The notes under the pieces were generated by a model. That model saw only the letters and a program-made list of their open reading frames with translations, made no database searches and was not told the DNA's origin. A stretch of 64,000 bases of DNA from assembly GCA_025336725.1 (NCBI GenBank), contig GCA_025336725.1_3647.1, one strand, 5' to 3'. The translations under genes were made by a program, and so were the position numbers. How positions within the stretch are numbered: the first letter of the stretch is position 1; each line of letters starts with the position of its first letter. The stretch comes from Escherichia coli (lineage in GTDB: Bacteria; Pseudomonadota; Gammaproteobacteria; Enterobacterales; Enterobacteriaceae). Positions 30,851 through 54,637 of the stretch are shown here, in pieces.

Positions 30851-31161
30851 TTCTTCAGGCGAGTATACATTGAGAACTTGACGTGCGGCAGCTTTGTCTG
30901 GAACGTCTGCTGATTATTAGTGACCCTTAAGAATCTATTATCCCATCCTGGGACAACATCTTCTGTTAAATGCTTCAACATTTGGTGAGAGAGCATGTGA
31001 AGTTCAAAGTTATCAACCTCACATGCCACTCTTTGTGTCATATCCCAACCTTTCAATCTCTCTTCTTTTTTTGGCTGAGACTTATTCAACTCTCCCGTAT
31101 TTTCAAGCACAACATCCTGATTGGCCCAAATATCAAGAGGGATAACTGGTTTAGTCATCAC
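30811..31161 (-). CDS. tail fiber 1, N-terminal domain ORF (different frame)
   Basis: AGGAG RBS + ATG; MMTKPVIPLDIWANQDVVL..KGWD.. homologous to N-domain ORF 33019..33213; last ~45 codons look out of frame. Confidence 0.5.
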   Translation of the reverse strand: MMTKPVIPLDIWANQDVVLENTGELNKSQPKKEERLKGWDMTQRVACEVDNFELHMLSHQMLKHLTEDVVPGWDNRFLRVTNNQQTFQTKLPHVKFSMYTRLKKWMTFMLTRLETQ

Positions 31162-35995: not shown

Positions 35996-37516
35996 TTAAA
36001 TAGTTTGTTGGAAAGTTATATTACTTTCGTCGAGGTCAAACACTTCGGTCATGTTTGCAACAACATCGTTTGTAGTGTAAGCTTCGTCAGAGGCTCCCAC
36101 AGGTTTAACTTGAATTACAAGTCTGTTAAATCTGCCTATTGACACAGCAGCCGATGCAGCGCCAACTAATTGGATATTATACAACGTGTCTGCAACATCC
36201 AAGCCGTTAACAACCTGCAAAAGAGCCTCTGTAATGGCATCTTTTTCGGTAGTGGAAAGTGCAGCACCCGAGTAAGTAATTCTCATATCCAAGCGGTAAG
36301 TGTTTGCCTTAGAATAATAAATCCTTTCAGTCTGACCGTCTGATGTGGTAATATCGTAGAAGATATTCCCATAAGTTCTGTTTGTGCAAGCTATGGTTTG
36401 ATACAGCGCTTGACAAATATCCTCTGTTGCACCACCAAACACTACCACTTGAAATTTGTAAGGTGGTATACCTTTCGCATCCGTTTTATCGGTGTTGTTA
36501 GAGAACACTCTTACTTTCTCAACACCTTTCACTTCGCTTACAGCGCTAAGGATTGCAGGGCGGGTAGCTTTAGATGTCAACTGTTTAGTGCTGGAGGCTC
36601 TTAGGCGGTACTCTGAGTCTTTCTCAACATCTCTGCCCTCATTGAATCTTTCTCGGTTGGTAAGCTTGATAAATCCGCTGGGGGTAGGTGACATTGTTGT
36701 TACAGTTTCTGCCTCTCTTGACAGCTCGCCTGCCTCATTAGCAATAACATCCAAAGTGATAGTTCTTTCCCCTACAATCGGGGATACTCTGAAATCTACT
36801 CTACTATTAAGTCCAACTTGATCAAGATTTGAATTGTACCCTATCCACAACGTTCCTGTCAACATATCGATCTGAATCAAATCGTCGTTCAACAGGGTTG
36901 TATTATCGACAATGAATTGCTTAATCTCTCCGTAAAAGCTTGGCAAATCAGAAGAGTCCAGAGACTTATCTGTTAAAACCAGACTTTTTGTTTTGATACT
37001 TCCATCTGTCTGGTTGGTAATTTGAAAGTTGTATTTCCCAATTCTTAGATCTGGAGCATTTATTCTGTGAGCAATAAGATTCCCTGCTACTTGCACATCA
37101 TTGCTAAGAACAAAGTTGCCACTATCCAGCGTATAAGTTTTGGAATCGTAAATCATATTGTACGGCACAGTTGTGTTGATCGTCAACTGGCAGGTACCTG
37201 ATGATTTAGAACGGCCTCTTCGGTAAATACCCTGTCTTCCAAGAAGTTCGTCTAGGTAAATACCTTCTGCCCCATACAGCGTCTGTGATGCGTATACAGA
37301 TGCTGCCATAAGAATAAGTTGATACTCTCGCTCGTTGAAGATAGTGGTCAGCTTATCCGCAACGGAGTTACTCTGTACGTTGAAGTTTTCGCCAAAAGCA
37401 CGGATCAGGCTTTGCTTAGTTTCAACGATTAGGTCATTTAGGGTTGGTATAACGAAACCAGCCTCTGTCAATCCATACTTAGCCACGTCACTCCTCCGGT
37501 ATGAAAATCTATACAA
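35996..37516 (-). CDS. baseplate wedge protein (Baseplate_J / P2 gpJ / Mu gp47-like)
   Basis: 506 aa; N-terminal ..LIRAFGENFNVQSNSVADKLTTIFNEREYQL..ASQTLYGAEGIYLDELL.. typical of baseplate J family. Confidence 0.55.
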   Translation of the reverse strand: MYRFSYRRSDVAKYGLTEAGFVIPTLNDLIVETKQSLIRAFGENFNVQSNSVADKLTTIFNEREYQLILMAASVYASQTLYGAEGIYLDELLGRQGIYRRGRSKSSGTCQLTINTTVPYNMIYDSKTYTLDSGNFVLSNDVQVAGNLIAHRINAPDLRIGKYNFQITNQTDGSIKTKSLVLTDKSLDSSDLPSFYGEIKQFIVDNTTLLNDDLIQIDMLTGTLWIGYNSNLDQVGLNSRVDFRVSPIVGERTITLDVIANEAGELSREAETVTTMSPTPSGFIKLTNRERFNEGRDVEKDSEYRLRASSTKQLTSKATRPAILSAVSEVKGVEKVRVFSNNTDKTDAKGIPPYKFQVVVFGGATEDICQALYQTIACTNRTYGNIFYDITTSDGQTERIYYSKANTYRLDMRITYSGAALSTTEKDAITEALLQVVNGLDVADTLYNIQLVGAASAAVSIGRFNRLVIQVKPVGASDEAYTTNDVVANMTEVFDLDESNITFQQTI

Positions 37517-37591: not shown

Positions 37592-38144
37592 TTAGTCGTG
37601 AGACTCGTTCCAAGGTCCCTGGAAGCTTGAGTTAGAACGGCTTACCACAACAGTAGGACAGGATATTGCGACCCCTGTTACAGAAGACGTTGACCATGGT
37701 GTGTAGATTTCAACAACAATATCTATGGTTTGTTCACCAAGACCTGTTATCCCTACCGCACACATGCCGTTGTTGTCGTTTCCGTATTTCTTACCTGCAA
37801 GGATTTGATGTCCGGCTATCCAAACGTTGAGCTGGGGTTTCGGCAAGAGTAGCCATTCAGTTTAAAGAAGAATGTTACGTTCTTACCCTGACCTGAAACG
37901 TTATCTACGTATCTCCACCTCCAACGGCAAACCCTTTGCTTGGGAGTTATATACTGGAGCACAATCCCCGTAAGTCCCTGTGTGTGCAACAATTGCACCG
38001 AACTGGTTAGCACGGATAACAGAAGCTTCTACACGACCACGGAAGGTATCTCCGGTTGCATCTATGGTGCCTCTAAAGCTACCATTATTGGCATAAATAT
38101 CCCCACGGAAGGTACCACTAGTGGCGTTAACTGCCCCCGTGAAG
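37592..38144 (-). pseudogene. frameshifted 3' continuation of lambda J-like gene (receptor-binding region in three frames)
   Basis: After stop at 38145 a -1 frame encodes ..GNFTGAVNATSGTFRGDIYANNGSFRGTIDATGDTFRG.. (lambda J C-terminal-like), then two more frame changes (ORFs 37816..38013, 37592..37846). Confidence 0.5.
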
Positions 38145-41100
38145 TTACCAGAACTGGCGTTGAGCGTTGCCTTTCACCCACACATCCATAAATTGGGGCG
38201 TGCCCGTTCTTGTTAATATACCAACCGTATTTATGGTACTTCCGTTGCCATCGTAGTTGTTTGACGAAATCTCCTGTGCAATCTTGGCTGAAGAGATCGT
38301 GCCATTTTCTATGAAGGCATCTTTCAAGAACGCTTGGTTGTTCTTGATTGCGAAAGCAAGGGTTGCTGTTCCGTTTCCAGGGTTATATACCGCAAAATTG
38401 TTTGCACTAACCATAAAGTAGGATTGAACTTGGCCCCCAGACCCTTCCATCCCCAACTGGATACCTGCAACATATTTATTCCCTGCGGAGTCCACCTGTA
38501 TTTTTGTGCCCCACTGAGCGTTTACTTTACCCTCTAAGTCGGTTACAGCCTTAGATGTTGTAGCTACTGCAGCCCTGATCTCGGACACATCTCCAACATC
38601 ATCAATGATCTCCTGCTTAGCAACAGCAAGTTCTTGACGAATAGCTGACGCTGTTCCGTTAATCAGGTCAACAGTGGCCTGATTAGTTTCAGAAATATTT
38701 GCAGACAAATCTTTCTTAGCTTGGGTAAGCTTATTATCCAACCCCGTAATATTGTTGGTGTTGGTTGTAATCTGCCCTTTAGCAGAGGTTAATTGTTCAG
38801 ATAAGGCTGCAGTTTTCTGATTCAGCAGGTCCGTTGTGGCCTTGTTGGTGGTAGAGATCAATGTATTGAGATCAGATTTAGTGGTGTTGATCTTGCCATC
38901 TAGAGTGGTGTAGTTTTTAGATACCGTGGCGTTAGTCTGGCTAATCTTCTGGTCAAGAGTCTGAGAAGTTCTATTCAGCAAATCCACAGTGGCCTGATTG
39001 GTGCTCAGAATGCTTGCATCCAGCTCAGATCTCTGAGTATTCAACTTACCTTCCAGGCTCTTATCTCCAGCCAGATATCCTTTTTCAACATCACCGATCT
39101 GCTCGGTTAGCTCACCTTGTGCAGCAACCAGTTTTTCATCCAACGCATCTGTTTTCTTGTTAAGAAGATCAGTGGTGGATTTGTTGGTTGTCTCAATCAA
39201 CGACGACAGTTTGGCACTCTCATTATTCAAGTTGTTGGTCAACTCACCTTTCGTTGCCGTCAGCTTATTGTCCAGTGCCTCGGTTTTCCGATTAAGGAGA
39301 TCTGTAGTCGTCTTATTGGTTGATACAATCAGAGAGTTCAGCTCAGAGCTTTCCTGTGCTAAAGCATCTTCCAACTCCCCCCTTGTTGAAACAATCTTCT
39401 CGTCCAAAGCTTCAGTTTTCTGATTTAGCAGATCGGTTGTAGCTTTGTTAGTGGTCTGGATTAGAGAAGTCAGCTTGCCACTTTCTTTAGAAAGATCATC
39501 TGCAAACTTGTTCTGAGTGGCTACCAGTTTCTGGTCTAGAGTGGTAAGCGTTCCATTAACGTCCTGGAAGTTGTCGTGGGTTTCTTGGATGAATATTCCA
39601 ACCCTATCCCCCAACTGAGCATACAGCTTGTCTACTCTAGAGAACTCACCTTCCATGTGGTCAAAAGCCTCGTCAACTCTACCATCCATGTACCTGTTAA
39701 GTTCTGTGACACGATTTTCAACCTCTTCAATAGAGGAATCCAAAGTGCTCATCAACTCTTTATAAGTTTCTGTCTTTTTGAATTCAGCATCTATCTGAGG
39801 CATCAAATCCTCGATAGAGGTGTAGCAGCGTGCAGCGCATTCTACAAACTGAGAGCTACCAAAAGCGTTTGTGGTTCGAATATACCAATAATAAACCTTA
39901 TCGTTCTGCAGGCCTTCAGATGTCCAAGTTGAACCAACACCCATACGGGTGGCGTTTGAAGTAACGGTTGCATCGCTGGTGTCGGGCAACCTTGTCATAC
40001 CAGATGTCCAAAAGTCATACTGGGTGCTTACACTTGCTAAATCCCTGCTGTGTGGAATCAAGGTGATAGCAAAGTATCCCTGCTTAACCTCTACAGAAAC
40101 AGGAGCTTCAGGTGCCTGAATGTTAAACTCGCAGTACGCTTCTGGAGATACACCACCTTTATAAGATGTTGCAACCACGGTTGCTGTGTATGATCCTTTG
40201 GTCAAGCCTTCTACTCGGACAAACTGCTCAACTGTCTGTGCTGTCCAAACAATCTCTCCGTTCTTTCTTACCTGCACAATATTTTGAGCGTAAGTTCCAA
40301 CGTTGTCCCAAGCCAAAACACCGTGAGTTACTTCCCCGGCTTGGAGAACGGAATACCTGAAGTTTTGCGGTTGAGCTACACCAGATGGAGATATCGGAAT
40401 ATCTACATTACCAGAGTCCGGAAGTTGTCCTGTGGCATCATTCCACTCTTTAGCATCTTGACGGAGTTTTACCTTGACACCACCCTTTTTAGTAAACTCC
40501 CATTCAAGAACCCTCATTTCTTGGCCCACTATACCAATACTTGGGAGGTTCATTGTAACGTAACGACCAGGTTTAAATTTAAAACCTCGCATATTGCAGG
40601 TGACTTCAATAATCCTGCCAGCTCTAGCGCGTCTTAAGAAGATTGCAGAAACACGCTGGGCTTGATAAGGGCTGGTAACAAAGCGATAGTCTATATCGAT
40701 TATCTTTCTTTCTCCATCCTTCTCTATCCACTCTGGGACAAACACTGATGGAAAATCTGTTTCAGAATATCCTTTGGTCGGGCTAGTGAATCTGCCAGTT
40801 ATTGTGTTGGATCTTTTGTCAAACGAGGCTTCCGGATAGATCTTAACCTCACCACAGACACAGTCCTCACTCAGTGTCATTGTTGCAGGGCCATAGTATG
40901 CACCAACCAGCAAACCATACTTACCAGCAACATAACTAAGATCTGCACCACAGGCTTTCAGCATTTCTGCCATAATACTTGCTGGGGCCTCATCCATGTC
41001 GAACTCACCGTTAATTGTGTAACGTCGCTCACTGGTTCCGTCAGCGTTTTTTACCGCCTCGTCGCATATGTTGGCAGCCTCCTTGAAGGACTCCCAGTTG

Positions 41101-41744
41101 ATGGTCTCGTCAGGACATTTAAGGTACGTTCTTAAATAGTCTAGGATCACCAAGGCAGCGTTATTGGTATACACCTCTTTACTGATACGAGGATCATAGC
41201 ATTTTTTACCAACCTTGACGAGTGTGACGTTTGGCAACCCAAAAGGAAACTTGTTAGGGTCAAACTTGAAGCTGGCACGTAGCCAACTGATCCCTCTACC
41301 TATCATGTCTGGTGACCAAGATGGGCAGTGTGTCCCCATGAAAGGATCAGCTGTTTTTCTGTCGTTATGTAGCTCCCACGATACCAAATCTCCATACGAG
41401 GAAATAGGATTACCATCGATAAGTATATCTTCTATACCTTCCAGAGGGTGATTGGCAAGAACAATAGCACAATGAAGAGTTTTGTCTCTATCCTGCTCCA
41501 AAAACGCAAGCAATCCGGATGTGCGTGTCTTACCATACACTACAGAGCAAGGTGCAGCAGAAGATCTGAGAAGCTTTTGTCTATCTTGCTGACTTCTGTA
41601 AGATTTGTTGCCCTCAAAAATCTTATCCAGAGTTCTGGTGGTAACAGTGTTCAGGCTGTCAGCCAGAGCTGCCTTGGATGCGTTCCAGTCATAACTTGAA
41701 GATCTTGCAGAAGCAACGATGTTATCAATCATTGCAATTGGCAT
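38145..41744 (-). CDS. central tail fiber / host specificity protein, lambda gpJ-like
   Basis: 1199 aa; ..APEAPVSVEVKQGYFAITLIPH.. and ..NKYVAGIQLGMEGSGGQVQSYFMVSANNFAVYNPGNG.. match lambda J; internal coiled-coil repeats. Confidence 0.75.
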   Translation of the reverse strand: MPIAMIDNIVASARSSSYDWNASKAALADSLNTVTTRTLDKIFEGNKSYRSQQDRQKLLRSSAAPCSVVYGKTRTSGLLAFLEQDRDKTLHCAIVLANHPLEGIEDILIDGNPISSYGDLVSWELHNDRKTADPFMGTHCPSWSPDMIGRGISWLRASFKFDPNKFPFGLPNVTLVKVGKKCYDPRISKEVYTNNAALVILDYLRTYLKCPDETINWESFKEAANICDEAVKNADGTSERRYTINGEFDMDEAPASIMAEMLKACGADLSYVAGKYGLLVGAYYGPATMTLSEDCVCGEVKIYPEASFDKRSNTITGRFTSPTKGYSETDFPSVFVPEWIEKDGERKIIDIDYRFVTSPYQAQRVSAIFLRRARAGRIIEVTCNMRGFKFKPGRYVTMNLPSIGIVGQEMRVLEWEFTKKGGVKVKLRQDAKEWNDATGQLPDSGNVDIPISPSGVAQPQNFRYSVLQAGEVTHGVLAWDNVGTYAQNIVQVRKNGEIVWTAQTVEQFVRVEGLTKGSYTATVVATSYKGGVSPEAYCEFNIQAPEAPVSVEVKQGYFAITLIPHSRDLASVSTQYDFWTSGMTRLPDTSDATVTSNATRMGVGSTWTSEGLQNDKVYYWYIRTTNAFGSSQFVECAARCYTSIEDLMPQIDAEFKKTETYKELMSTLDSSIEEVENRVTELNRYMDGRVDEAFDHMEGEFSRVDKLYAQLGDRVGIFIQETHDNFQDVNGTLTTLDQKLVATQNKFADDLSKESGKLTSLIQTTNKATTDLLNQKTEALDEKIVSTRGELEDALAQESSELNSLIVSTNKTTTDLLNRKTEALDNKLTATKGELTNNLNNESAKLSSLIETTNKSTTDLLNKKTDALDEKLVAAQGELTEQIGDVEKGYLAGDKSLEGKLNTQRSELDASILSTNQATVDLLNRTSQTLDQKISQTNATVSKNYTTLDGKINTTKSDLNTLISTTNKATTDLLNQKTAALSEQLTSAKGQITTNTNNITGLDNKLTQAKKDLSANISETNQATVDLINGTASAIRQELAVAKQEIIDDVGDVSEIRAAVATTSKAVTDLEGKVNAQWGTKIQVDSAGNKYVAGIQLGMEGSGGQVQSYFMVSANNFAVYNPGNGTATLAFAIKNNQAFLKDAFIENGTISSAKIAQEISSNNYDGNGSTINTVGILTRTGTPQFMDVWVKGNAQRQFW
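38640..39500 (-). repeat. tandem ~130-nt coding repeats inside J-like gene
   Basis: About 6 repeats of ..SxLxSLIxTTNKxTTDLLNxKTxALDxKLxxxxGELT..; boundaries approximate. Confidence 0.5.
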
Positions 41745-42181
41745 TAATACCTCCAGACATCAACAACGATAGAATCTTTCATGTCGAACATAAAGACCCC
41801 TTTATCACCTTTCGCCCAAATCTGGTTGTTCCAGAACACACCAGCGGTGAGCCCGTTCAGACCTTCGAAAATAACAATATCTCCACGCTGAACCTGCTTA
41901 GGAGTGTCCAGTCGAGTCATAAAGAAATCAAAAATAGTAGGCAGGTGTGTAGTTTTGAAACGAAGCATGCACCATCTTTTGCTTTCCAACTCTGTTTTAT
42001 ACGTCCCTTCGAAGTTAGAAAGAAAATCTGTTCCGTATTGGGCATCAACACACTTAGCTGCAAAGGTGCAACAATCGTGGAATCCCCATTCAAAAGGTAT
42101 GGTGGCCTCCTCGTCAAACACTTTCCACAATCTTTCTTGCCAATCCACTAAACGAGGGTGTGTGCTCATTAAACCTCCCAA
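41744..42181 (-). CDS. tail tip assembly protein, NlpC/P60-like (lambda gpK-like)
   Basis: 145 aa; candidate catalytic Cys in ..HDCCTFAAKC..; immediately upstream of J-like gene. Confidence 0.5.
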   Translation of the reverse strand: MGGLMSTHPRLVDWQERLWKVFDEEATIPFEWGFHDCCTFAAKCVDAQYGTDFLSNFEGTYKTELESKRWCMLRFKTTHLPTIFDFFMTRLDTPKQVQRGDIVIFEGLNGLTAGVFWNNQIWAKGDKGVFMFDMKDSIVVDVWRY

Positions 42182-42735
42182 ATGATCGGGCGGCTCGCCA
42201 CCTGATCCACATATTTAAAAAATCTGTCGTTATCGTTTCTTGAGCTGTGGCTTTCCTCCGTGTACCGATAAGGAAAACCTCTTAACCAGCTGTTGAAGAT
42301 GGAAGAGATGGATATGGACAAAGCGCTATTCTCTCCTGTCTGAATAGCCATATCTGTTATAAGGCCGTCAAACAAGCCATTAGTTGTGACAGGCAGACCA
42401 TTCTCCATAGCGGTAATGTACAACGTGGCACGACAACCAGAATACTCCGTCTTCAGCAGATCACCCACATACTTAGGATCAAACCCGTTTAATGTTGCTA
42501 CCACAGATCCGAAGTTGGTGGCATCTTTCTCAGACACAGCAGTTAATGTTGCTGATCCACCTATCCCTATAAAATGTTGCCCCTCAATTACTACAACACC
42601 AGTGCCTGAGCACACCCTAACAGTTCCTGTCGGTAGCTCCAGCTTTGCAGCAATTAAGATCTCAACACCATCAAGCTCCAGCTTTTCAAGAAATAAATTA
42701 TCTAATGGCGCTCTGATCATCTTAGAAATCCTCAA
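42169..42735 (-). CDS. minor tail protein (lambda gpL-like, tentative)
   Basis: 188 aa; position between M-like and K-like genes. Confidence 0.35.
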   Translation of the reverse strand: MRISKMIRAPLDNLFLEKLELDGVEILIAAKLELPTGTVRVCSGTGVVVIEGQHFIGIGGSATLTAVSEKDATNFGSVVATLNGFDPKYVGDLLKTEYSGCRATLYITAMENGLPVTTNGLFDGLITDMAIQTGENSALSISISSIFNSWLRGFPYRYTEESHSSRNDNDRFFKYVDQVASRPIIWEV

Positions 42736-43312
42736 AGAAGTTGATAACTATATTATCACCTTTTTGCATAGCATCGACTTTTTGCTTAATTTTATAAATA
42801 TCTCTGATATGAAACCTACCCTTCGGGGATTGAGTTATTATCTTCATAGTGTCCCCTGCGGCAATAGGTTTTCTAAGTCTTGGAGATATGCTTATAACAG
42901 CAGACCCAACACCATCGCTACGCACTGGAGCTGTTACCACTTTCAATTCATCATTGACAGATATTTTATCCCCAGCTCTGGCTATGTCTCTGTTTGGCTC
43001 CCACCCAACCGTCCTCAAAAAATCATCGTTACCAGTAGGCCCAAGGGCGATTGGCTCATTAGCTGTTACTGAGTGACCGTAAGTTTTAATAAGAAAGATG
43101 TTTCCATCTTTATACACCTGATCAACAAAGCTCTTAAGCTCTAGCAACTGTGACTCGCTGATATTGGAAACCGTCAAAGTGCCTTTCCAGTTAGGTGTGG
43201 CATAGGTTACTTTTTGCGTTTTACCTGTAAACGGACTTTTAAACGTAACAATATCTGCCAGTAGCTCCAATCTAATATCTGGAAGGTATCTAGGCCTTTC
43301 CCATAAAAACAT
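42722..43312 (-). CDS. minor tail protein (lambda gpM-like N-terminal region, tentative)
   Basis: 196 aa; ..GTLTVSNISESQLLELKSFVDQ.. resembles lambda gpM ..YSVTLSVPREEATVLESFLEEHG.. Confidence 0.35.
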   Translation of the reverse strand: MFLWERPRYLPDIRLELLADIVTFKSPFTGKTQKVTYATPNWKGTLTVSNISESQLLELKSFVDQVYKDGNIFLIKTYGHSVTANEPIALGPTGNDDFLRTVGWEPNRDIARAGDKISVNDELKVVTAPVRSDGVGSAVISISPRLRKPIAAGDTMKIITQSPKGRFHIRDIYKIKQKVDAMQKGDNIVINFFEDF

Positions 43313-43373: not shown

Positions 43374-43403
43374 ACAAACAAAAAGCCCCCGCCGAAGCGA
43401 GGG
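43374..43403 (-). terminator. rho-independent terminator
   Basis: Minus strand GCCCTCGC-TTCG-GCGGGGGC followed by TTTTTGTTTG, just downstream of fiber gene stop. Confidence 0.6.
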
Positions 43404-43411
43404 CAAAACAG

Positions 43412-46400
43412 TTACTTCAGTTTCTCTTGCAACCCAGTAACAACCTCTGTCAATTTTTTAACCTGCTCCTCAAGGGCGGTTATTTTATCATCCTGTTCCC
43501 TGCAAACCTGGACAAGCAAGCCTGTAACAGCTGCGTAGTCAACGTTATAGAACCTTTCCTCGGTCATCAGAGGAATACCGTCTTGAGTAGGACCTTCTAT
43601 TTCCTTCCTTTTCACGAAAGACCCTACTGCCTCTGGCAATGCTTCCATAACCTCTTGAGCAATCACGCCTGCATAAGGCATACCATTCTCTTTCAAGGTG
43701 TAGGTATAGCCTTTCATCTTTCTAATTGCTTCCAGAGCGTTAGGTATGACCTCTATATTATCCTTCAGGTCACGGTCAGAACTTTGACTAACAGTGGTGC
43801 ACTCTACCGTGCCGTTGACAGCAAAATATCTTGATTTAGCCTCATCTGCCTTAGCTCCACAGTGGAATACCCAGCTGGCGGCTGTTGAGTTATCACTTAT
43901 CTGAAGCTCCAGCACACTCTTCCTATCCGCGCCATTACCCCAATAGAATAATCTAGCATTATCAGCAGGTAGGTTACCGTTGTTGCTGGGATCTTCAGAA
44001 CCACCAACATGAATGCATAGCTCTTTATCTGTTTCATCAACATTTCGATTCGGGCGTAACTGGATAGCTTTACCAGAATCATGCCGCCAAACTTCCCACA
44101 TATAAGTGGAGCCAGTTCTATCCATGTTACCAACACGCGTGTATCTGTCACCAAAACGTGTGATGTACTCCTGTACGCATCCTTTCGGATTGTTTGCATT
44201 GTTCTGGTAAACAATCAGAGTACCAGCGTACGGTGCTGGGTAATGTCTTTCAGATGTCGAGTTGGCATCAAGATGTTGGTGATAGATGCCCTCACAAGTA
44301 CCATCGTAAGTGTTTAGGTCTGTAGATTCAAGACCTGCACCTCTGTGTGAGAAGATCTTGTTCCACGGTCTGTGAGCACCACCCTCAATAGATCTGGTAT
44401 ACAACCTATCAAGGCGACCAGCTATCTGGAAAGCATAATTCCCAGAAAATGCCACAGACAGACCGCCAACAACCATCGAACCTTCCGGCCCGTTGACATT
44501 GCCAGCCATTATCTTGGAGGGGTTTGTATTACCAAACTGATTGTTCCAGTCAGCACCTGTCTGGCAAACATAGCCTCCCGGAGGGAAAAATGTGCCGTCT
44601 TTGTTGAAATTGTAGAACTTATGAGCTGTACCTACAACATCGCGAACGATAACTTGACCAGCTTCCGGAGTAGATCTGAACTCTGCCTGGCCTTGCAGTC
44701 TTGCACCATTACCACATTTAGAGGTAAAGGTGTTGTTGATCAGATCCTCTGTTCCTTCCGATGCAGCCTGGAACCCTGCATTAGAGAACAGTGCTTTTCG
44801 AGTAGTCTGACTACCTGGGCAGATGTAGTTAAGACCGTTGCACCATAACTCTGTCAGGCCAAACTCTGTTTTATTGGACAGGAAATATCTGTCAGAAGAC
44901 CCACGATACATCCACTGATTGGTGTAGAAACCTGTTACACCATTAAATTCAGCCAGAGGTCGAGTGTTTGTTACATTGTCACCTTTGATTGCTAGATTCA
45001 AGTCAGCAGATGCTAGAGGTGCACAGAATTTAACACCGTCTTGGTTGTTTGTTACATTGCCAACCTGCCAGTCTTCCTCTCTTGTTGACACCTCTATTAC
45101 GTCAGCGCTGGCATACACTGTTACAGGGAAGGCACGTGCCTCCACATAGAACGCAACATACTCTTGTTTACCCCTTGTTGGAGCAACGCACCCAAGTATC
45201 GCCTTCTCATTCTGGTAGAAATTTATCGACCCGGTAAAGAAGTCACCACGATCAGTCCAGCCACCAGTTCTGTAGTGGCACTGCAGTGTAGCACAGTTCA
45301 TAGGATCGTTGCCAGAAGAAGATCTGGTAACGATGGTTAAATCTGTCCCGATTGTTGGCGCATGGTTAGGATCGGTTCTGACAATAATCGGATAATACTT
45401 GCCATCCTGCATCGCTGCAGTTCTAGGCAGGTTTATATATGGTCTGACACCTGCTGCAAGAGGGATTCTGAATTGTGCCTGGGCATCTCCCACAGTCCTA
45501 GCACTGGTGCCACCGCAACCTATCGGCAAAGGTTCCCATTTAGCCTTGCGGTTGTTATAAACACCCCATTCCAGAGTACCATTACCGGATTCATCCATCC
45601 CTCCATCCCAGATTACCATTTTTGCGGCTTTCTTGGATCCCCAGAACCCTCTTTCTGCTCCTGAACTACGGATCCATTCTCCAAGACCCCAGTTTGTCAG
45701 CTGACCAGTAAGATCCCCAACCTGCATGTATTTAGGGCAGTCTAACACGCCATCTTCGCGGAAACCTAAATATCTATGAGTTTCAGATCCTTTTGCGCCT
45801 TTGTGCAGGTGGAGTGTCAACCAAGCCTTATTGTCGTTTCTTACCTCAGAGTAGATCCTATACCCATGCTCAAGGACACCGTCAGCGCTGTATTTGTCCC
45901 CGTTAACAATACCTGATGCTGACTTAACATCTCCAGAGTATTGAGCTAAGTAAAGGTGCCCGAAGGCTGGTGAGTTGTTTTTACCAAGGCCGATATGAGA
46001 TCTGAAGGTATCATCGTTACGAGGTCTGACCATCGGCTGCCATGCAGTCCACTGATTTGTGTTGGCCTGATAGGTTCTCAAATACCAAACATCTACGTTA
46101 GAGAATGGATAGTATTCCTGACGACAACCTGTACCGCCGTTAGCGTTGTTCTGCCAAACAATCAAGTGACCAGCACCAGAACCTGCAGGGTAACCATTTG
46201 CCTCAGTTGCATAAGCAGTCATCGGCTGGTAGTATATACCATCCTGATTACCAGTCAAGTTATTGATATTGAAATTTGGCTCAAGGGCTGCACGTTGCTT
46301 ATAGAAAGCACCGATATTGGTACGGATTCCAGCGGCATCTCTAGCCCCTGTGCCGCCCTGCTCTATAGCAAGAGGCTGCCAAGAAGCTGTTTGTTGGTTC

Positions 46401-47221
46401 CACATACCCCAACGGCCTGTTGCATCAAGCTGCAAGTACCCTGCCGTGTTTAAATCATCTCCAGCACGGATAACTGTTCTTGTTGGGTTGTTTGCCTCCA
46501 GGCGTTTAAATTCGTCACGAAGTGCTATTCTTTTTGTTGTTGCTACACCGTTGGTTACTGCAATGGTATACATGGCTCCAGAGGTAGCGCCACGGAAAAT
46601 GCCATCAACAGTTGTAGTATCACGACGAGATACCACACCGTTCAGAAATTTTTCACCAGCCGCTTCAGAAGGGTAATTAGTAGTTCTTCCCTCTTCAATA
46701 ACTGCAGGACCAACAAAGTTGACAAGGTGAATAACATCGCCTACAGTATGCACTGTGCCAAAATCTACCCGCTGTGCAAGTGCTTTAGCATCGTTGGCTG
46801 TCTGAACAGTAACATCCATTACATCCTGGACAGACTGCCCTTCGGCTGTCATGATCATAGATGCGCCAATGGTAGACTCCAGCTCCTCCCTTAAGGACGG
46901 ATCTGTATATACCATCCACGCAGCGTCAGTAATCCCACCGTCAGAATATGGTGAAGACAGTGCAGGGACAGTGTGTGGAAATTCGCCTTTCCAACGCAGG
47001 TATAGATCTTCCTCTTCGAAGTAGGCAAAATCCATTGGGCCGTTTAACTTACCACCTTCCTTAAAGGAGATTACATGAGAAACAGTCCCATCCACATGGA
47101 CAACATCGCCAATTTTTACACGACGGGTCAGGTCTGGTTGTTGAACAACCAGGTAATCATCCTCTGTCACTGCGGTAGTGGCAGGAAGAGATTCAATTCT
47201 GACAACTTTAATATCAGCCAT
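43412..47221 (-). CDS. long tail fiber with C-terminal intramolecular chaperone (peptidase S74-like) domain
   Basis: 1269 aa; C-terminus ..SDRDLKDNIEVIPNALEAIRKMKGYTYTLKENGMPYAGVIAQEV..; N-terminal domain shared with ORF 49856..50524. Confidence 0.7.
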   Translation of the reverse strand: MADIKVVRIESLPATTAVTEDDYLVVQQPDLTRRVKIGDVVHVDGTVSHVISFKEGGKLNGPMDFAYFEEEDLYLRWKGEFPHTVPALSSPYSDGGITDAAWMVYTDPSLREELESTIGASMIMTAEGQSVQDVMDVTVQTANDAKALAQRVDFGTVHTVGDVIHLVNFVGPAVIEEGRTTNYPSEAAGEKFLNGVVSRRDTTTVDGIFRGATSGAMYTIAVTNGVATTKRIALRDEFKRLEANNPTRTVIRAGDDLNTAGYLQLDATGRWGMWNQQTASWQPLAIEQGGTGARDAAGIRTNIGAFYKQRAALEPNFNINNLTGNQDGIYYQPMTAYATEANGYPAGSGAGHLIVWQNNANGGTGCRQEYYPFSNVDVWYLRTYQANTNQWTAWQPMVRPRNDDTFRSHIGLGKNNSPAFGHLYLAQYSGDVKSASGIVNGDKYSADGVLEHGYRIYSEVRNDNKAWLTLHLHKGAKGSETHRYLGFREDGVLDCPKYMQVGDLTGQLTNWGLGEWIRSSGAERGFWGSKKAAKMVIWDGGMDESGNGTLEWGVYNNRKAKWEPLPIGCGGTSARTVGDAQAQFRIPLAAGVRPYINLPRTAAMQDGKYYPIIVRTDPNHAPTIGTDLTIVTRSSSGNDPMNCATLQCHYRTGGWTDRGDFFTGSINFYQNEKAILGCVAPTRGKQEYVAFYVEARAFPVTVYASADVIEVSTREEDWQVGNVTNNQDGVKFCAPLASADLNLAIKGDNVTNTRPLAEFNGVTGFYTNQWMYRGSSDRYFLSNKTEFGLTELWCNGLNYICPGSQTTRKALFSNAGFQAASEGTEDLINNTFTSKCGNGARLQGQAEFRSTPEAGQVIVRDVVGTAHKFYNFNKDGTFFPPGGYVCQTGADWNNQFGNTNPSKIMAGNVNGPEGSMVVGGLSVAFSGNYAFQIAGRLDRLYTRSIEGGAHRPWNKIFSHRGAGLESTDLNTYDGTCEGIYHQHLDANSTSERHYPAPYAGTLIVYQNNANNPKGCVQEYITRFGDRYTRVGNMDRTGSTYMWEVWRHDSGKAIQLRPNRNVDETDKELCIHVGGSEDPSNNGNLPADNARLFYWGNGADRKSVLELQISDNSTAASWVFHCGAKADEAKSRYFAVNGTVECTTVSQSSDRDLKDNIEVIPNALEAIRKMKGYTYTLKENGMPYAGVIAQEVMEALPEAVGSFVKRKEIEGPTQDGIPLMTEERFYNVDYAAVTGLLVQVCREQDDKITALEEQVKKLTEVVTGLQEKLK

Positions 47222-47256
47222 TCTTTCTCCTGAAAGGGGGCAAACAGCCCCCTATG

Positions 47257-49854
47257 TTAAAGGTACAATCCACGGTATTGAGCATAAAGTCCCAGACCGC
47301 GAAGGATTTCGCCAGAGTGATAGCCTACCGGATCAGAAACTGCCCAGCAGCCGTTTAAAACATTATCCCCGTTAATGAAGTGGTGCTTTTGCAGTAACTT
47401 CACACAGGCTTCTACAACAATATCTATTTGGGGTATTGTCTCTGAATACCCGCACAGACCTAGCCAGCAGCAACCTGCAAGCCATTCACCAACCACCCAC
47501 ATCCTGTCTCCTCTGTCTTGATAAGAATATCCCCCAGAGGTGTTAAAGTCTGTAGGCAGATTTCCTGAATGAGATGACTGGAATCTGTTGAGGAACCATG
47601 CCCATTTCTGGCAGAACAGGAATAGTCTTTCATCAACAGGTTCTTTATGTTTCTTGAGCTCATATATTGTTCGGCACGCAGCAACAAAAGATCTTGACTG
47701 GAGTTTAGAGTTATCTACCATCTCCCACCAACCAGTCAATCCTTCATTACCTCTCTGCCATACATAACGTGAGGCAACTGGACCCTCTGTCTTAAATGTA
47801 TTATTATACCAGACTTGAGCGTCATACAGAAAGCCTATTGTATTTGACAATCTATGGCGATCTATGTTTTCTGCACCCATGCAGTAGACTGCTGGGTATT
47901 GCATACCAGGGTATGGCCAATTTGGCTTTTCCTCTAAGAGATAGTTTTCCTTATCTATCACCTTTCCGGCAGGGAACACACCCGGTGTGTGCCTGTATGC
48001 ACCTTGCTTGTAGTTTCTGACATAGCAATCACCAACCTTAGCGGTTGATTCTGTCTTGCTTGCCATCCACACGCTAAACCATATTAGATAAGCATCCCTA
48101 TCTGCAATATAGAACTGCGGCAGCGTGTTTACGCAGTACAGATCAAACAAGCCATTACCTATCTGCCTGTCGCTTAGACTGAAATCTACAGAGGTGAGCC
48201 CTTTAGGATTAGCAAAGAAAGGTTTAATCTCTTCTTCGGTGTGATGAGGTTGTGTCGGATCTAGTTTGAAATCTCCTAGAGTAAGAGTTTCTGTTATCCA
48301 TTGTCCATTAGTGGCATATAGATCAGCATACCATAACCACCTATCTTTGTCAAGAAATTTGACCCTTACCATCTCATCATCTGACCGATAAGTTACTGAA
48401 TTTAAAGAAATCTCTCTCCCAAAATTGAAAGTTACTTTACCTCTTGCTATATTACAACGGGTGAAGTTGTCAGAGTGGTTGTAAATGTCGGTATCATACT
48501 GCATACTAACACTAGCGCCACCGCTTACGACAATGTTTTCCTCTTTAGGTAAGAGATACGGATTACCGTCTTTACCAACTACCTCTACGAAATCAGTGAC
48601 CTTGGCAACTGTCTCTGTTACCTCTGACCCTCCAAAAGGGACCCCTATCCTATACTGTTTTTTGTTATTGTTGCCATCATTAAGGATGAAATGTGGCTGG
48701 AACAGAACTCCTTCTCCTCCGAAATTCATAACAATTTCAGCATCTCTGCCGATCTTGTATGTGGTCCCTTTTTGGATTATTTCACAAGGCTGGCGTGCGT
48801 TCATTCTAAAATTGATATACCCGTCGCTGTCCCTACTCATGACAGGAACTGTTCCTGCAACGAGACAGGCTCCATCTGTGAACGGTGCCTTAATCAACGT
48901 GGTCTTTCTAAACAACTTGTCGTAGGCATTTATATCACTGAAATTAAGCAACTTGTTGTAAGACTGTTTAAACGCGGTGTAATACTTTTCCTCACCTGTC
49001 AAGGTGTAGAGTTGATAACAAGCGTCGCACCACATTTCTTCCCCGTCCAACTCTGGGGCTTGATTATCTGCAACCACATTTATAGGATTTACAATTACAG
49101 GGGATCCAGCAGGTATCACCGATCCACCCTGCTCTTGTGGCAATCTCACACAGTAGGTTACCTTGTGGCTGCCTGTAACACCCTTATCCTGCAGTTGGAT
49201 TGTGCCGAACTCTGCAGACGTATGACCACTATCGGCTATGCTACCGTTGGCCCAATAGCGGTTACCGTCCCATGCTATATACCACTCAACCCACCAACTT
49301 AATCCAGATGTTGTCCAATTTGGGTTAGCATCTGTGCCGCCGTAAACATCAGAGTCTACAGTGTTTCTTCCTAACACACCGTTATACGCTTGGAATGCCT
49401 TGTCCAGGTATTCCCCCCATGTTGGAGATCCAGCTGGGATTTTTCCTCTACCGTTGGTAAAAGACACCACCACATCTTTAAACCCACCGTGTGATGGGAC
49501 CCCATCTGTGGATAGAGGGTAGTGGGACAATCTTTGCATTTTACTTTCTACGGCATATGCACCCAGAAGATGACTATTGTACGCTTCCCAAGCATCTTTT
49601 GCCCTATCCAGATAGAAATAGCTTTTCGATGCCCTGTATGCTTCAATGTATCCCAGAATCAACACAGCTTGGGACTCATGCATTGCCCAATCATTATTTA
49701 TCTTACTCCCTGACCAACCTGACGCTATAAGTCCATCTTGGTTTACCAGCTTGTTCTGCGTAGGAAGATTGGTAATACCTGTGTTGTTATCGAGGCACTT
49801 CCTGTGCCCCTCAATCATCTGGAATACGTTATCAATGTTGTGTTGAATACGCAT
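47257..49854 (-). CDS. tailspike-like protein, possible polysaccharide-degrading domain
   Basis: 865 aa; weak resemblance to (alpha/alpha)6-barrel glycoside hydrolases; call is tentative. Confidence 0.35.
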   Translation of the reverse strand: MRIQHNIDNVFQMIEGHRKCLDNNTGITNLPTQNKLVNQDGLIASGWSGSKINNDWAMHESQAVLILGYIEAYRASKSYFYLDRAKDAWEAYNSHLLGAYAVESKMQRLSHYPLSTDGVPSHGGFKDVVVSFTNGRGKIPAGSPTWGEYLDKAFQAYNGVLGRNTVDSDVYGGTDANPNWTTSGLSWWVEWYIAWDGNRYWANGSIADSGHTSAEFGTIQLQDKGVTGSHKVTYCVRLPQEQGGSVIPAGSPVIVNPINVVADNQAPELDGEEMWCDACYQLYTLTGEEKYYTAFKQSYNKLLNFSDINAYDKLFRKTTLIKAPFTDGACLVAGTVPVMSRDSDGYINFRMNARQPCEIIQKGTTYKIGRDAEIVMNFGGEGVLFQPHFILNDGNNNKKQYRIGVPFGGSEVTETVAKVTDFVEVVGKDGNPYLLPKEENIVVSGGASVSMQYDTDIYNHSDNFTRCNIARGKVTFNFGREISLNSVTYRSDDEMVRVKFLDKDRWLWYADLYATNGQWITETLTLGDFKLDPTQPHHTEEEIKPFFANPKGLTSVDFSLSDRQIGNGLFDLYCVNTLPQFYIADRDAYLIWFSVWMASKTESTAKVGDCYVRNYKQGAYRHTPGVFPAGKVIDKENYLLEEKPNWPYPGMQYPAVYCMGAENIDRHRLSNTIGFLYDAQVWYNNTFKTEGPVASRYVWQRGNEGLTGWWEMVDNSKLQSRSFVAACRTIYELKKHKEPVDERLFLFCQKWAWFLNRFQSSHSGNLPTDFNTSGGYSYQDRGDRMWVVGEWLAGCCWLGLCGYSETIPQIDIVVEACVKLLQKHHFINGDNVLNGCWAVSDPVGYHSGEILRGLGLYAQYRGLYL

Positions 49855-49855
49855 C

Positions 49856-50524
49856 TTAGATAGCTCCTGCGATAATCAGTGCTCCGTACCAAGTTAACCC
49901 GTTGTCGTAGGTTTCCAACTTGAAAATGTCTGTTGCACCAGCTGTAAATGTCAGGATAGGATCTCTTCCGTATGCCCATTTAACATTATCAGGCCAATAG
50001 ACTTTGTTACCGCCAGAGGTCTGAGTAATGCATACGGTTATAGTTCTCGCCACACCTTCAAGACCTTCTGTTTGATTTTCAAAAGAGATTGTGGTGTTTG
50101 AAGTTAGTCGAACTTTAAAAGTGTCAGCAACTTCAAGATCCATATCAAGCTGACCACCAATAGATCCGTAATCAACTATTCTGCCAGAAGAAGTTGCAGC
50201 AAGCTCACCAAAAACAGACCAGGCTTTTGCAGACACACCCCCAGCACCCTCTACAGTGGAGTCTGGGAGGATTATTTTAGGATAATCCCCGTTCCACGTG
50301 TAGTAGCGCTTAGTTTCTGGGTCATAAGCAAAGTCCTTCTTGCTCTTAAGATAACCACCCTCTGTGAAATAGACTATCTTAGTAATGCTAAGATCGTTGA
50401 CAACATCGTCAATCTTAGCCTTTCTTGTCCCATCAGTCTGGTTGACAACCAAGAAGTCATCACTCAGGACTGTTTCTGCATCTTCAAGATCTGGAATTGG
50501 TATTGTAGGATAAGCTACAGCCAT
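49856..50524 (-). CDS. tail fiber anchor-domain protein
   Basis: 222 aa; N-terminus ..DDFLVVNQTDGTRKAKIDDVV..FTEGGYL..DFAY.. homologous to N-terminus of the 1269-aa fiber. Confidence 0.45.
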   Translation of the reverse strand: MAVAYPTIPIPDLEDAETVLSDDFLVVNQTDGTRKAKIDDVVNDLSITKIVYFTEGGYLKSKKDFAYDPETKRYYTWNGDYPKIILPDSTVEGAGGVSAKAWSVFGELAATSSGRIVDYGSIGGQLDMDLEVADTFKVRLTSNTTISFENQTEGLEGVARTITVCITQTSGGNKVYWPDNVKWAYGRDPILTFTAGATDIFKLETYDNGLTWYGALIIAGAI

Positions 50525-50533
50525 GATTTCTCC

Positions 50534-51118
50534 TTAGTTAACATCAATAGCACGACCAGACTGGTTGGCAATAGCCTCATCATTGGAGGTAGCAATAACA
50601 CCAGAGTATTCGCGCTCATCTGGAGCAAGCGTCCAGGTATTGCGGTTAATGGTTTGTTCTGCCTCAGTCATCAGCAGATCTTTATCCTGAGTCAACAGAG
50701 AGCCTACAGGGATCGGGTTTTCCATCTCAGGACCAGCATACTGGTTCCACCATGTGGCATCTCCGGTTCTAGGCAATCTGAAGTTGATCAGGTAGTACAG
50801 TTTATTAGCCCACTTAATCCAACCCTCATCATCACAGAGAGAGGTTGTCCCAGAATCAGGCTGTGGGTAGGTGAACTGATCAAGACCTACGAAAGCCAGC
50901 CTTACAATCTCGTTCTCTTTGGTAACAACCTCAAAGAACGCTTGGTATGTTCTAGATCTTCGATCCATGGTAGACTGGAAGTTTATGATGTTTAGCACAT
51001 CCGGCTCTTGTCTTGCCACTTCCATAATCTTGTTATCAAGAACAGTCTTCATGACCTTCTTGCTGAGAAAGTCCATATAAGGGAGCAAACAGCTCGTCAG
51101 CAGCCAGCTCCCTTCCAC
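50534..51118 (-). CDS. baseplate wedge protein gp25/W-like, C-terminal part (frame-split)
   Basis: ORF-track GTG start without RBS; ..KIMEVARQEPDVLNIINF.. downstream of N-part in another frame. Confidence 0.4.
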   Translation of the reverse strand: MEGSWLLTSCLLPYMDFLSKKVMKTVLDNKIMEVARQEPDVLNIINFQSTMDRRSRTYQAFFEVVTKENEIVRLAFVGLDQFTYPQPDSGTTSLCDDEGWIKWANKLYYLINFRLPRTGDATWWNQYAGPEMENPIPVGSLLTQDKDLLMTEAEQTINRNTWTLAPDEREYSGVIATSNDEAIANQSGRAIDVN

Positions 51119-51246
51119 GTATTAAACCTCATCCACAAGCGCTGGCGCAGACTTACCTGGTTTGAATCTATCAACTCAAGACCTTTGTCTATCGCCAAAT
51201 CGCCTGTCTGCGGGTCCATCAATATGTCACTATAAAGCGTAGCCAT
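51097..51246 (-). CDS. baseplate wedge protein gp25/W-like, N-terminal part (49 aa ORF)
   Basis: ATG at 51246 with AGGG RBS right after gpV-like stop; MATLYSDILMDPQTGDLAIDKGLELIDSNQVSLRQRLWMRFNTWKG matches gp25/W N-terminal pattern. Confidence 0.4.
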   Translation of the reverse strand: MATLYSDILMDPQTGDLAIDKGLELIDSNQVSLRQRLWMRFNTWKGAGC

Positions 51247-53332: not shown

Positions 53333-53878
53333 TTATTTTCCGTTAACTTTGTTGTAGTTCCCCTGCTCAGATGGGACTATGGTGGAAGGTCTTCCATATT
53401 CCTGATAATACCAATCTGCAGCCGATTGGGTAACACCGTTTTCATCTGTCCACATCATGGATTTGTATGGCTGCCACTCTTCTGCAGCATTTGTGGACGC
53501 GGTGTCTGCAAATGCCCCTGTGTCTCTCTTGTTACCTACGTTACTACCATTCTTGCAATCGTTGACAGCCCCTTTTTGCTGGGTCTTGCCGACCTTCTTG
53601 GGGTTGCTGTATACAGTTGCATTAACAACCTTGTTCAAGTAGAATGTGCGGAATTCTGTAAGTTCCACATCAAACACCATTGCAGCACCCTCACCAACAG
53701 ACTTGTTGGCAGAAAGACTGGTTATAATGTAGTTTTCAAGGAGTCTCTCTTCAGTAACTAAAGAAACCAACTGCCGCTTATTAATGATCTCGTCAAAGTT
53801 TCCAGTGCAGCGCCGCAAGTCGCATAGACGCTGCAGGGTTTTTAGAGTCAGTATTCCTGTCAATGTAGTTTTGCTCAT
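53333..53878 (-). CDS. hypothetical tail protein
   Basis: 181 aa; ATG at 53878 directly after in-frame TAA; overlaps upstream ORF by 86 nt. Confidence 0.4.
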   Translation of the reverse strand: MSKTTLTGILTLKTLQRLCDLRRCTGNFDEIINKRQLVSLVTEERLLENYIITSLSANKSVGEGAAMVFDVELTEFRTFYLNKVVNATVYSNPKKVGKTQQKGAVNDCKNGSNVGNKRDTGAFADTASTNAAEEWQPYKSMMWTDENGVTQSAADWYYQEYGRPSTIVPSEQGNYNKVNGK

Positions 53879-54218
53879 AGATTATATGTGGTGATGTATT
53901 TACCCTACCAGTAAAAGAAAATACACCATCTTTAATTACAGCGTGGTCTGACAGGGTAGATTTATCTTCCACCGCAAACCCAGTCTTATCAACAGAATGT
54001 TTGAAAGAATAGTTCTCAACCTGGTCGAAGATAATGGCAAGATCGTTAGTAAAGTTTTTACCCTTCATCTCCGTATTGCGACCACCATAGTTAAGACCGC
54101 TGACAAACATAGTATACTTTACATCGCTTTCAGTTTGCTGCTCTGCCTTTTCAGCCTTTGGAGATTTAACCTCTTGAGGCTTGTACAGGTCTTTTTCATC
54201 AACTATATTGCTTGGCAT
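53793..54218 (-). CDS. hypothetical tail protein
   Basis: 141 aa ORF; 3' end overlaps next gene in a different frame. Confidence 0.4.
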   Translation of the reverse strand: MPSNIVDEKDLYKPQEVKSPKAEKAEQQTESDVKYTMFVSGLNYGGRNTEMKGKNFTNDLAIIFDQVENYSFKHSVDKTGFAVEDKSTLSDHAVIKDGVFSFTGRVNTSPHIIYEQNYIDRNTDSKNPAASMRLAALHWKL

Positions 54219-54323: not shown

Positions 54324-54464
54324 TTACCAAAGGTCGGTAGACATGAAGTTGATATCTTTATTGTTCTCCCACTCAAGTTTTGCATCAAATATTTTGTTAA
54401 ACTCGCCCTCATCTATTGAAATCGTGATTTTCCCATCACTGATCTCTAAAGGTAGCATTTCCAT
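54324..54464 (-). CDS. small hypothetical ORF (46 aa)
   Basis: MEMLPLEISDGKITISIDEGEF.., below ORF-track cutoff; sits just upstream of terminator; weak RBS. Confidence 0.25.
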   Translation of the reverse strand: MEMLPLEISDGKITISIDEGEFNKIFDAKLEWENNKDINFMSTDLW

Positions 54465-54637
54465 AGTTCTTAATTGAGAAGCAAAACCGAGGCCACCCCG
54501 GCAACGGAAAATCCCGCCCCATTAAGGTGTCCAAAGGATTAACAAACCCGTTACCTCAAATGAAAGTATCTTTGCGAATCATATCGCTGATAGCATCCAG
54601 CTGCTGATTTCTTTCACTTAGTGGGTTGTAACGGTCA

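Follow-up and report, generated by a model that had tools for sequence, protein, structure and literature searches.

A two-part N-terminal module shared by two tail proteins of an rV5-like Escherichia coli phage, and a putative adaptor for the predicted glycosidase encoded between them

Two tail proteins encoded in a 64,000-nt stretch of DNA deposited under Escherichia coli (GenBank assembly GCA_025336725.1, contig GCA_025336725.1_3647.1; hereafter the window), a small protein of 222 amino acids (aa) and a long fibre of 1269 aa, begin with the same N-terminal module, which is missing from the 865-aa enzyme-like protein encoded between them. The window is 89-93% identical in DNA to more than 100 genomes of Vequintavirus, the rV5-like myophages of E. 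coli (for example Murica, JEP1 and the BASEL phages Bas54 and Bas59), and on this evidence is assigned to that genus. The explanation that we favour, at slightly better than even odds (roughly 0.55), is that the module would fix the 222-aa protein to the periphery of the baseplate, and that the C-terminal beta-sandwich of this protein would in turn hold the predicted 865-aa glycosidase, the product of the next gene downstream, which itself lacks an anchor. The 1269-aa protein would be the main exchangeable receptor-binding fibre, mounted by an anchor of the same type, and enzyme and long fibre would most likely occupy two distinct, adjacent sockets at or close to the wedge protein of the baseplate.

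It is textbook knowledge that the exchangeable receptor-binding proteins of phage tails carry conserved N-terminal anchors, and the shared module itself is therefore unsurprising. It is also already partly noted: the GenBank record of phage PVP-SE1 describes gp49 as a 'putative fusion protein similar to rV5 gp043 at N-terminus', and the rV5 paper used HHpred to tie the N-terminus of gp43 to the particle-binding N-terminus of the P22 tailspike (PMC3606486). No paper that we found, the original phi92 genome paper not being among those covered, states the rule of two carriers per tail locus, the two-part build of the module or the cassette of adaptor and glycosidase. Of these, the adaptor-enzyme cassette is the most interesting by-product of the analysis.

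The shared module and its reading as an anchor

An earlier note on this DNA had described a conserved N-terminal stretch of about 80 residues (DD.LVV.Q.D.TR..KI.DVV....I.F.EGG.L....DFAY) in the 222- and 1269-aa proteins, had found it lacking in the enzymatic-looking 865-aa protein, and had read it as an anchor. Formal alignment bears out the shared stretch: residues 8-105 of the 222-aa protein align by BLASTP with residues 7-105 of the 1269-aa fibre at 38% identity and 55% positives, with one gap (E=3e-18), and the motif is present in both proteins. The length has to be corrected, the conserved stretch covering about 105 residues instead of 80. When each N-terminus was searched by phmmer against the 468 six-frame open reading frames (ORFs) of the window, it retrieved only its partner (E=3.8e-17 and 1.8e-18; next best E>0.3), and no additional copies in the window were found by phmmer, by a two-sequence profile or by a four-sequence profile of the most N-terminal part. 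As the note had it, the module has no counterpart in the 865-aa protein (best E=1.4). A tblastn search of complete Vequintavirus genomes places it at two positions per record.

The shared region is best described, from the alignments, as a two-part attachment module that consists of an N-peptide of about 45 residues and a PF18668 'head' domain. PF18668 (Tail_spike_N, the TSP1/Gp66 N-terminal domain) matches residues 51-104 of the 222-aa protein and residues 46-103 of the 1269-aa fibre with 40.5 bits each (E values in Table 1), against a gathering score of 25 bits, and the first ~45 residues of both proteins fall outside it. The N-peptide is a separable element, since two proteins of phage phi92 keep it without PF18668. 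The 157-aa gp140 corresponds to the 222-aa protein minus residues ~42-110, a clean indel that removes PF18668, and the endosialidase gp143 starts with the same kind of N-peptide. The N-peptide of the 1269-aa fibre is 35% identical to residues 1-37 of gp140 (E=7.6e-6 in a database of 15 proteins), and the N-peptides of the 222- and 1269-aa proteins, phi92 gp140/gp143, PVP-SE1 gp51/gp49, GAP31 221/223 and ESCO5 101/098 can all be aligned. AlphaFold2 predicts strands at residues 24-28 and 33-36 of the 222-aa N-peptide, with low confidence.

Among proteins of solved structure in the PDB, the N-terminus of the 222-aa protein matches gp13 of the Shigella phage Sf11 (9occ, E=4.7e-5) and the CBA120 tailspikes TSP1, TSP3 and TSP4. 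That of the 1269-aa fibre matches 9occ (E=1.5e-11), 9d84, 9lna and again CBA120 TSP4, TSP3 and TSP1; by phmmer, the entries 5w6h (TSP4), 5w6f/6nw9 (TSP3) and 4oj5 (TSP1) are retrieved with E values from 3.7e-5 to 3.7e-4. In the fibre, homology to solved tailspikes extends as far as the 'neck', near residue 140. Residues 18-123 of the fibre align with the D1-D2 'head' of a Kuttervirus TSP4-like protein (residues ~377-497 of the latter), and for this reason we regard the module as a shortened relative of the CBA120-type head.

The reading of the module as an N-terminal virion anchor of trimeric tail appendages is supported by its position, its conservation and its distribution, in addition to the PF18668 match. 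It forms the extreme N-terminus of both proteins, with nothing upstream, and in the characterised relatives it is likewise the N-terminal face of the trimer that docks. Among five Vequintavirus orthologues of the fibre, residues 1-400 are 96-100% identical and the N-peptide is 99.6% conserved; identity falls to 54-90% over residues 550-1150, and the S74 domain is conserved again. Between genera the distal part of the large carrier is replaced entirely and the N-peptide is retained. A profile of the N-peptide, run against 1.84 billion representative proteins, retrieved 118 clusters at E<=1e-3, in about 100 of which the match lies at residues ~1-50 of proteins of up to 1599 aa; the ten cluster proteins examined carry S74, beta-helix, SASA-esterase or Collar modules. 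In virions of rV5, proteomics detected gp41, gp42 and gp43, the orthologues of the 1269-, 865- and 222-aa proteins (PMC3606486).

About 17 of the 118 profile matches are internal and repeated within a protein, with as many as 14 stretches in one protein of 4797 aa, and the N-peptide may derive from, or resemble, a repeated fibre unit. In the jumbo phage SPN3US, the N-terminus of gp143, the small partner of the enzyme there, reads ..LHELDS....SSAVALISVDEKEYKLPLSEI.. and loosely resembles the N-peptide motif. By this resemblance, the N-peptide may not be confined to the groups of rV5 and phi92.

The small protein and the neighbouring enzyme

The 865-aa protein matches no Pfam family. Its predicted fold is an (alpha/alpha)6-barrel, the fold of GH105/GH88/GH76/GH8-like glycoside hydrolases, and we treat it as a predicted glycosidase. 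Enterobacterial common antigen, the proposed primary receptor of this phage group, and colanic acid are suggested here as conceivable substrates. The C-domain of the 222-aa protein (residues ~112-222) is modelled with a predicted local distance difference test score (pLDDT) of 65-86, and Foldseek retrieved no significant PDB match to the 222-aa model. The two families are found together almost without exception: in phage records the C-domain occurs 521 times and the 865-type enzyme 532 times, with taxon counts (C-domain/enzyme) of 240/243 for Escherichia, 99/103 for Salmonella, 58/62 for Vibrio, 33/33 for Erwinia, 12/12 for Cronobacter, 7/7 for Aeromonas and 6/6 for Klebsiella. The small gene immediately precedes the enzyme gene, in most cases with an overlap at the start of the latter, in every locus inspected: Vequintavirus, Seunavirus, phi92, Phapecoctavirus, Rosemountvirus, the jumbo phage SPN3US, Pantoea phage TacPo2, Vibrio phage D506, an Autographiviridae podovirus and metagenome contigs. 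For the jumbo phage PBECO4, the C-domain and enzyme matches are 8 nt apart. About 18-23 of the records are named 'Campylobacter phage' and match E. coli Vequintavirus or phi92-like genomes at these loci, one of them, A150, with 99% protein identity to phi92 gp141; they may be mislabelled or contaminated.

In five groups outside the relatives of rV5 and phi92, the small proteins (156-277 aa) share the terminal C-domain and have unrelated N-termini. That of the small partner in Aeromonas phage Atoyac10 is PF03906 (Phage_T7_tail, 45 bits against a cut-off of 25.2). A variable anchor joined to a conserved domain that always stands beside one enzyme is what would be expected of an adaptor. In the window, too, the enzyme lacks an anchor and a separate small protein carries one, and across the phage records the two genes are inherited together. 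The 222-aa protein is thus most likely an adaptor that gives the 865-aa enzyme its anchor in trans, and we infer that the two proteins bind each other physically. The enzyme probably lacks the module because the 222-aa protein supplies one, a point that the earlier note did not make.

Such an arrangement is reportedly known from podoviruses, in the adaptor and tailspike systems said to have been described by Leiman in 2007 and Prokhorov in 2017 (K1E, K1-5 and SP6, with a gp37-type adaptor that has a T7 gp17-like N-terminus, and G7C, with gp63.1 and gp66). The likeness to the K1-5, SP6 and G7C adaptors is that a small anchored protein carries an anchor-less enzyme, as proposed here, and the small partner of Atoyac10 has a T7 tail-fibre anchor. 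The cargo differs, being a predicted (alpha/alpha)6-barrel glycosidase here and a trimeric beta-helix spike there. Here, moreover, the docking domain would be a distinct beta-sandwich C-domain, and the anchor is swapped between phage groups with the pair kept.

We extend this only tentatively, and at somewhat less than even odds, to the proposal that the (alpha/alpha)6 glycosidase and its small partner make up a portable cassette of two genes, used on at least eight tail architectures (large and jumbo myoviruses, 53-kb myoviruses and a T7-like podovirus) with only the anchor of the adaptor swapped. In the rV5 and phi92 groups the cassette would have borrowed the N-peptide of the main fibre and would correspond to 'fibre II' of the cryo-electron microscopy (cryo-EM) of phi92, its adaptor having turned into an essential part of the baseplate.

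Several observations weigh against the explanation favoured here. In transposon sequencing of Bas54 (HIDEN-SEQ; bioRxiv 10.1101/2025.11.20.689424, Extended Data Table 8) the orthologue of the 222-aa protein is called Essential, with insertions at 7 of 47 TA sites, whereas that of the 865-aa protein is Intermediate (94 of 189) and dispensable; the small protein therefore does more than carry the enzyme. Distant homologues of the 865-aa protein were searched for fusions to the module or to the C-domain, and none was found. The C-domain is also seen at the end of some longer fibres (317-339 aa), where it could serve as a tip, and it need not be a socket. The evidence that both N-peptides co-evolve at the residue level with one partner is weak and mixed, as judged from paralogue versus orthologue identity in a test for concerted evolution. 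Finally, the homologous D1-D2 head of CBA120 TSP2 and TSP4 is internal and does not dock (PMC8825819), so that homology alone is no proof of docking.

The most probable of the alternatives, which we still consider unlikely, makes the 222-aa protein an essential miniature fibre or peripheral baseplate part and lets the 865-aa protein attach by its own N-terminus; the two genes would travel together through action at the same step, and the module would still anchor the 222- and 1269-aa proteins. Such independence would account for the unequal essentiality, the lack of fusions and the C-domain at the ends of longer fibres, and it is consistent with the N-terminus of the enzyme family, which all distant homologues share and which carries a strongly conserved motif of its own, IDN.FQ.I.GH..F. 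It is harder to reconcile with the near-perfect co-occurrence of the two families and their adjacency across more than eight tail architectures, a T7-like podovirus included. In that podovirus, a 270-aa 'fibre' consists of nothing but anchor and C-domain, and an anchor-less (alpha/alpha)6 enzyme would need a mount.

Two carriers and their docking sites

In an alignment of the N-peptides from five phages of four genera (Vequintavirus, Seunavirus, Justusliebigvirus and Phapecoctavirus), each tail locus scanned contributes two carriers, one of them small and encoded behind the sheath initiator, the other a large receptor-binding protein. Either both carriers have PF18668, as in the Vequintavirinae, or neither has it, as in the Stephanstirmvirinae (phi92 gp140/gp143 and ESCO5 101/098). 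The large carrier is an S74 fibre of 1269 aa here, a colanidase-type protein in Seunaviruses and an endosialidase in phi92. The N-peptides of the two paralogues in one genome are 29-58% identical, those of orthologues from different genera 29-52% (the close pair phi92/ESCO5 left out), and pairs of a small and a large carrier from different genera 36% on average; within genomes of the Vequintavirinae the paralogues reach 46-58%, slightly above that mean. By this comparison the two carriers are old paralogues that have formed separate lineages since before the four genera split.

The earlier note had proposed that the two proteins compete for, or share, one baseplate site. In its stronger form, with the 222-aa protein and the fibre competing for or alternating in one socket and giving mixed virion populations, we regard this as improbable. 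It would fit the presence of the same module in both proteins, the joint presence or absence of PF18668 across subfamilies and the slightly raised N-peptide identity within Vequintavirinae genomes, but the two carriers are not interchangeable, since one is Essential in Bas54 and the orthologue of the 1269-aa fibre tolerates insertions (Intermediate, 154 of 238 TA sites, mutants viable; bioRxiv 10.1101/2025.11.20.689424). The latter still contributes to fitness, because insertions across its whole length were nearly gone after liquid competition on K-12 (bioRxiv 10.1101/2025.11.20.689424). Both proteins occur in rV5 virions, and the paralogues have been distinct, at 29-58% identity, in all four genera.

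The tail of phi92, the 'nanosized Swiss army knife' (Schwarzer 2012; Chen 2026, PMC13450770), points the same way. Its genes gp139-gp140-gp141-(gp142)-gp143 are orthologous to those of the sheath initiator and the 222-, 865- and 1269-aa proteins, and gp140 and gp143 carry the same N-peptide; the differences are that both lack PF18668 and that the large carrier is an endosialidase. The phi92 tail carries three fibre types of six trimers each, of which fibres I and II form separate densities and meet at one point on the wedge protein gp145 (PMC13450770). Because the carriers are not interchangeable, are old paralogues and would correspond to separate densities, two neighbouring sockets of one type are favoured over competition for one. 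It is plausible that both proteins use one type of docking surface.

The best candidate for a docking partner would be the gp145 orthologue of the window (Table 1), because the other candidates appear to be missing from some genera in which both N-peptide carriers are retained. One of these is the siphovirus-like Dit/L/K/J cassette downstream of the fibre gene (Dit, distal tail protein), which would offer an Sf11-like platform. The tail loci of Seunavirus and phi92 that were inspected do not have it, although both keep the two carriers, and its genes are called Non-essential or Intermediate in Bas54 (bioRxiv 10.1101/2025.11.20.689424). The other, likewise rejected as a conserved partner, is the 690-aa deacetylase-type fibre (phi92 gp142). 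No Salmonella or Cronobacter phages are among the taxa listed for its homologues, so that it is apparently missing from Seunaviruses. When 13 tail proteins of the window were scanned with Pfam and PHROG, no gp10-like XD domain was named; such domains are difficult to recognise from sequence.

A further alternative, a shade less probable than competition for one socket, takes the shared region for a mere trimerisation or spacer head from a common tailspike ancestor, with attachment through other parts. The branched tailspikes of CBA120 and other Kutterviruses (Plattner 2019, Chao 2022, PMC8825819) bear on it from both sides. Several receptor-binding proteins per virion share a head there, as they do here, PF18668 being the D2 head family; the arrangement proposed here would resemble this branched complex as well as the podoviral adaptor units. 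The heads of TSP2 and TSP4 are the internal ones mentioned above. Those of TSP1 and TSP3 sit on XD3 domains (PMC8825819); there the head is the N-terminal end of the protein, as it is here, and would therefore be the natural docking surface. Unlike in CBA120, no full D1 of ~85 residues precedes D2 but only the ~45-residue peptide, the phi92-type relatives lack D2 altogether, and one carrier is a 222-aa protein without an enzymatic body.

The second comparison is with the Shigella siphophage Sf11, whose gp13, mounted on the distal tail protein gp17 (9OCC, PMC12724387), is the best solved match to both N-termini. A short segment upstream of its PF18668-like domain contacts the virion and bundles with a helix of the distal tail protein (PMC12724387). 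Docking by a helical segment outside the PF18668-like domain would suit a spacer head. Whereas the Sf11 segment is helical and bundles with a Dit adaptor helix, a beta-rich structure is predicted for the N-peptide here, and the Dit-like protein is not a conserved partner (absent from Seunavirus and phi92, Bas54 orthologue non-essential). The spacer reading is countered by the position of the module at the extreme N-terminus, by phi92 gp140, which is made of N-peptide and C-domain only and leaves the N-peptide as the sole candidate anchor, and by the N-peptide at the head of about 100 diverse protein clusters. That the similarity is a chance or compositional artefact is refuted by the pairwise E value, the independent Pfam matches and the recurrence of the pairing in four genera.

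Our preferred assignment, an anchored adaptor with its enzyme beside a separately socketed fibre, bears on phages that have a broad host range; rV5-like and phi92-like phages are candidates for therapy and biocontrol. Which genes build which lateral fibres is left unclear in the BASEL paper as well as in the 2026 paper on the phi92 structure (PMC13450770), and the published phi92 work covered here does not point out the shared peptide, does not consider gp141 as part of a fibre and leaves fibre II unassigned (PMC13450770). The two-carrier rule and the adaptor-enzyme pairing turn this into a concrete and testable gene assignment. The TC12 fibre of RBPseg would be the orthologue of the 1269-aa protein, to judge from the S74 domain only. 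For host-range engineering, the module boundary at about residue 45 or 105 is where distal modules could be swapped.

Locus organisation and other features of the window

The tail and baseplate genes form a block on the minus strand, transcribed in the order central spike, sheath initiator, 222-aa, 865-aa and 1269-aa protein; the Dit/L/K/J cassette follows the 1269-aa gene, and then come wedge proteins (506 and 228 aa) and more fibres. The three genes considered here are intact and collinear with those of the relative Bas59, whose orthologue of the 222-aa protein is 98.6% identical; the 222-aa protein also matches phrog_7760, 'tail fiber protein' (E=5.8e-119). Coordinates are collected in Table 1.

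Table 1. Positions of the genes, domains and putative signals discussed in the text, numbered from the first letter of the window
Feature	Position	Strand	Basis or remark
Small tail protein gene, 222 aa	49856..50524	-	ORF; orthologue of rV5 gp43, Bas54 bas54_0025 and PVP-SE1 gp51; proposed adaptor
N-peptide of 222-aa protein, residues ~1-45	50390..50524	-	Motif ..I.i.dL....V...D[FY]lVv.Q.d.T+K..
PF18668 Tail_spike_N ('D2 head') of 222-aa protein, residues ~46-108	50201..50389	-	Pfam, E=3e-10
C-terminal beta-sandwich domain of 222-aa protein, residues ~112-222	49859..50191	-	Proposed docking domain for the 865-aa enzyme
Enzyme-like protein gene, 865 aa	47257..49854	-	Orthologue of rV5 gp42, phi92 gp141 and Bas54 bas54_0026; without the anchor module
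Long fibre gene, 1269 aa	43412..47221	-	ORF; orthologue of rV5 gp41 and Bas54 bas54_0027; phrog_6578 tail fiber
N-peptide of 1269-aa fibre, residues ~1-45	47087..47221	-	Alignment with other N-peptides
PF18668 Tail_spike_N of 1269-aa fibre, residues ~46-105	46907..47086	-	Pfam, E=2.9e-10
Variable distal region of 1269-aa fibre, residues ~550-1150, presumed receptor-binding	43772..45574	-	Drop of identity among orthologues
Peptidase_S74 intramolecular chaperone of 1269-aa fibre, residues 1148-1199	43625..43780	-	PF13884, E=7.6e-15, 55.4 bits against a cut-off of 22
GC-rich hairpin GGGGGC-tgttt-GCCCCC, then TTTC, between 865-aa and 1269-aa genes	47236..47252	-	Read from the sequence
Intrinsic-terminator-like site directly 3' of 1269-aa gene	43385..43404	-	8-bp stem with 7 GC pairs, then TTTTTGTTTG
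Baseplate wedge protein, 506 aa, phi92 gp145 orthologue	35996..37516	-	Pfam Baseplate_J; 31% identical to gp145

The hairpin between the enzyme and fibre genes precedes an AGGAG and the ATG of the 1269-aa gene, and the record of phage Murica has a terminator annotated in the homologous region; it may be a candidate transcriptional attenuator into the fibre gene. The terminator-like site behind the fibre gene appears to mark the end of the transcription unit.

The siphovirus-type tail-tip cassette lies inside this myovirus tail locus at 38145-43312 (minus strand). Its products are a Dit-like protein of 196 aa (phrog_1302), a tail protein of 188 aa, a protein of 145 aa for which the Bas59 annotation gives cell wall hydrolase, and a lambda J-like protein of 1199 aa with the Pfam domains Phage_Tail_Tip and Ig_J_second. 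Breaks were seen at 50537-51246, 53336-54218, 54327-56662, 30116-31158 and 37595-38194; the first three correspond to Bas54 genes with the call Essential, and the breaks are therefore probably indel errors of the source sequence, by which the 222-, 865- and 1269-aa genes are not affected. A 412-aa ORF at 57524-58762 (minus strand) lies in a stretch of about 1.8 kb that separates the tail tube gene from the gene after it; since Bas59 has only about 160 nt at that position, the ORF is probably an insertion. The adjacent ORFs 23058-26369 and 26423-28033 (minus strand; 1103 and 536 aa) both match phrog_15684, at profile positions 556-1646 and 1-535, and resemble one big gene cut in two, with stop codons at the junction.

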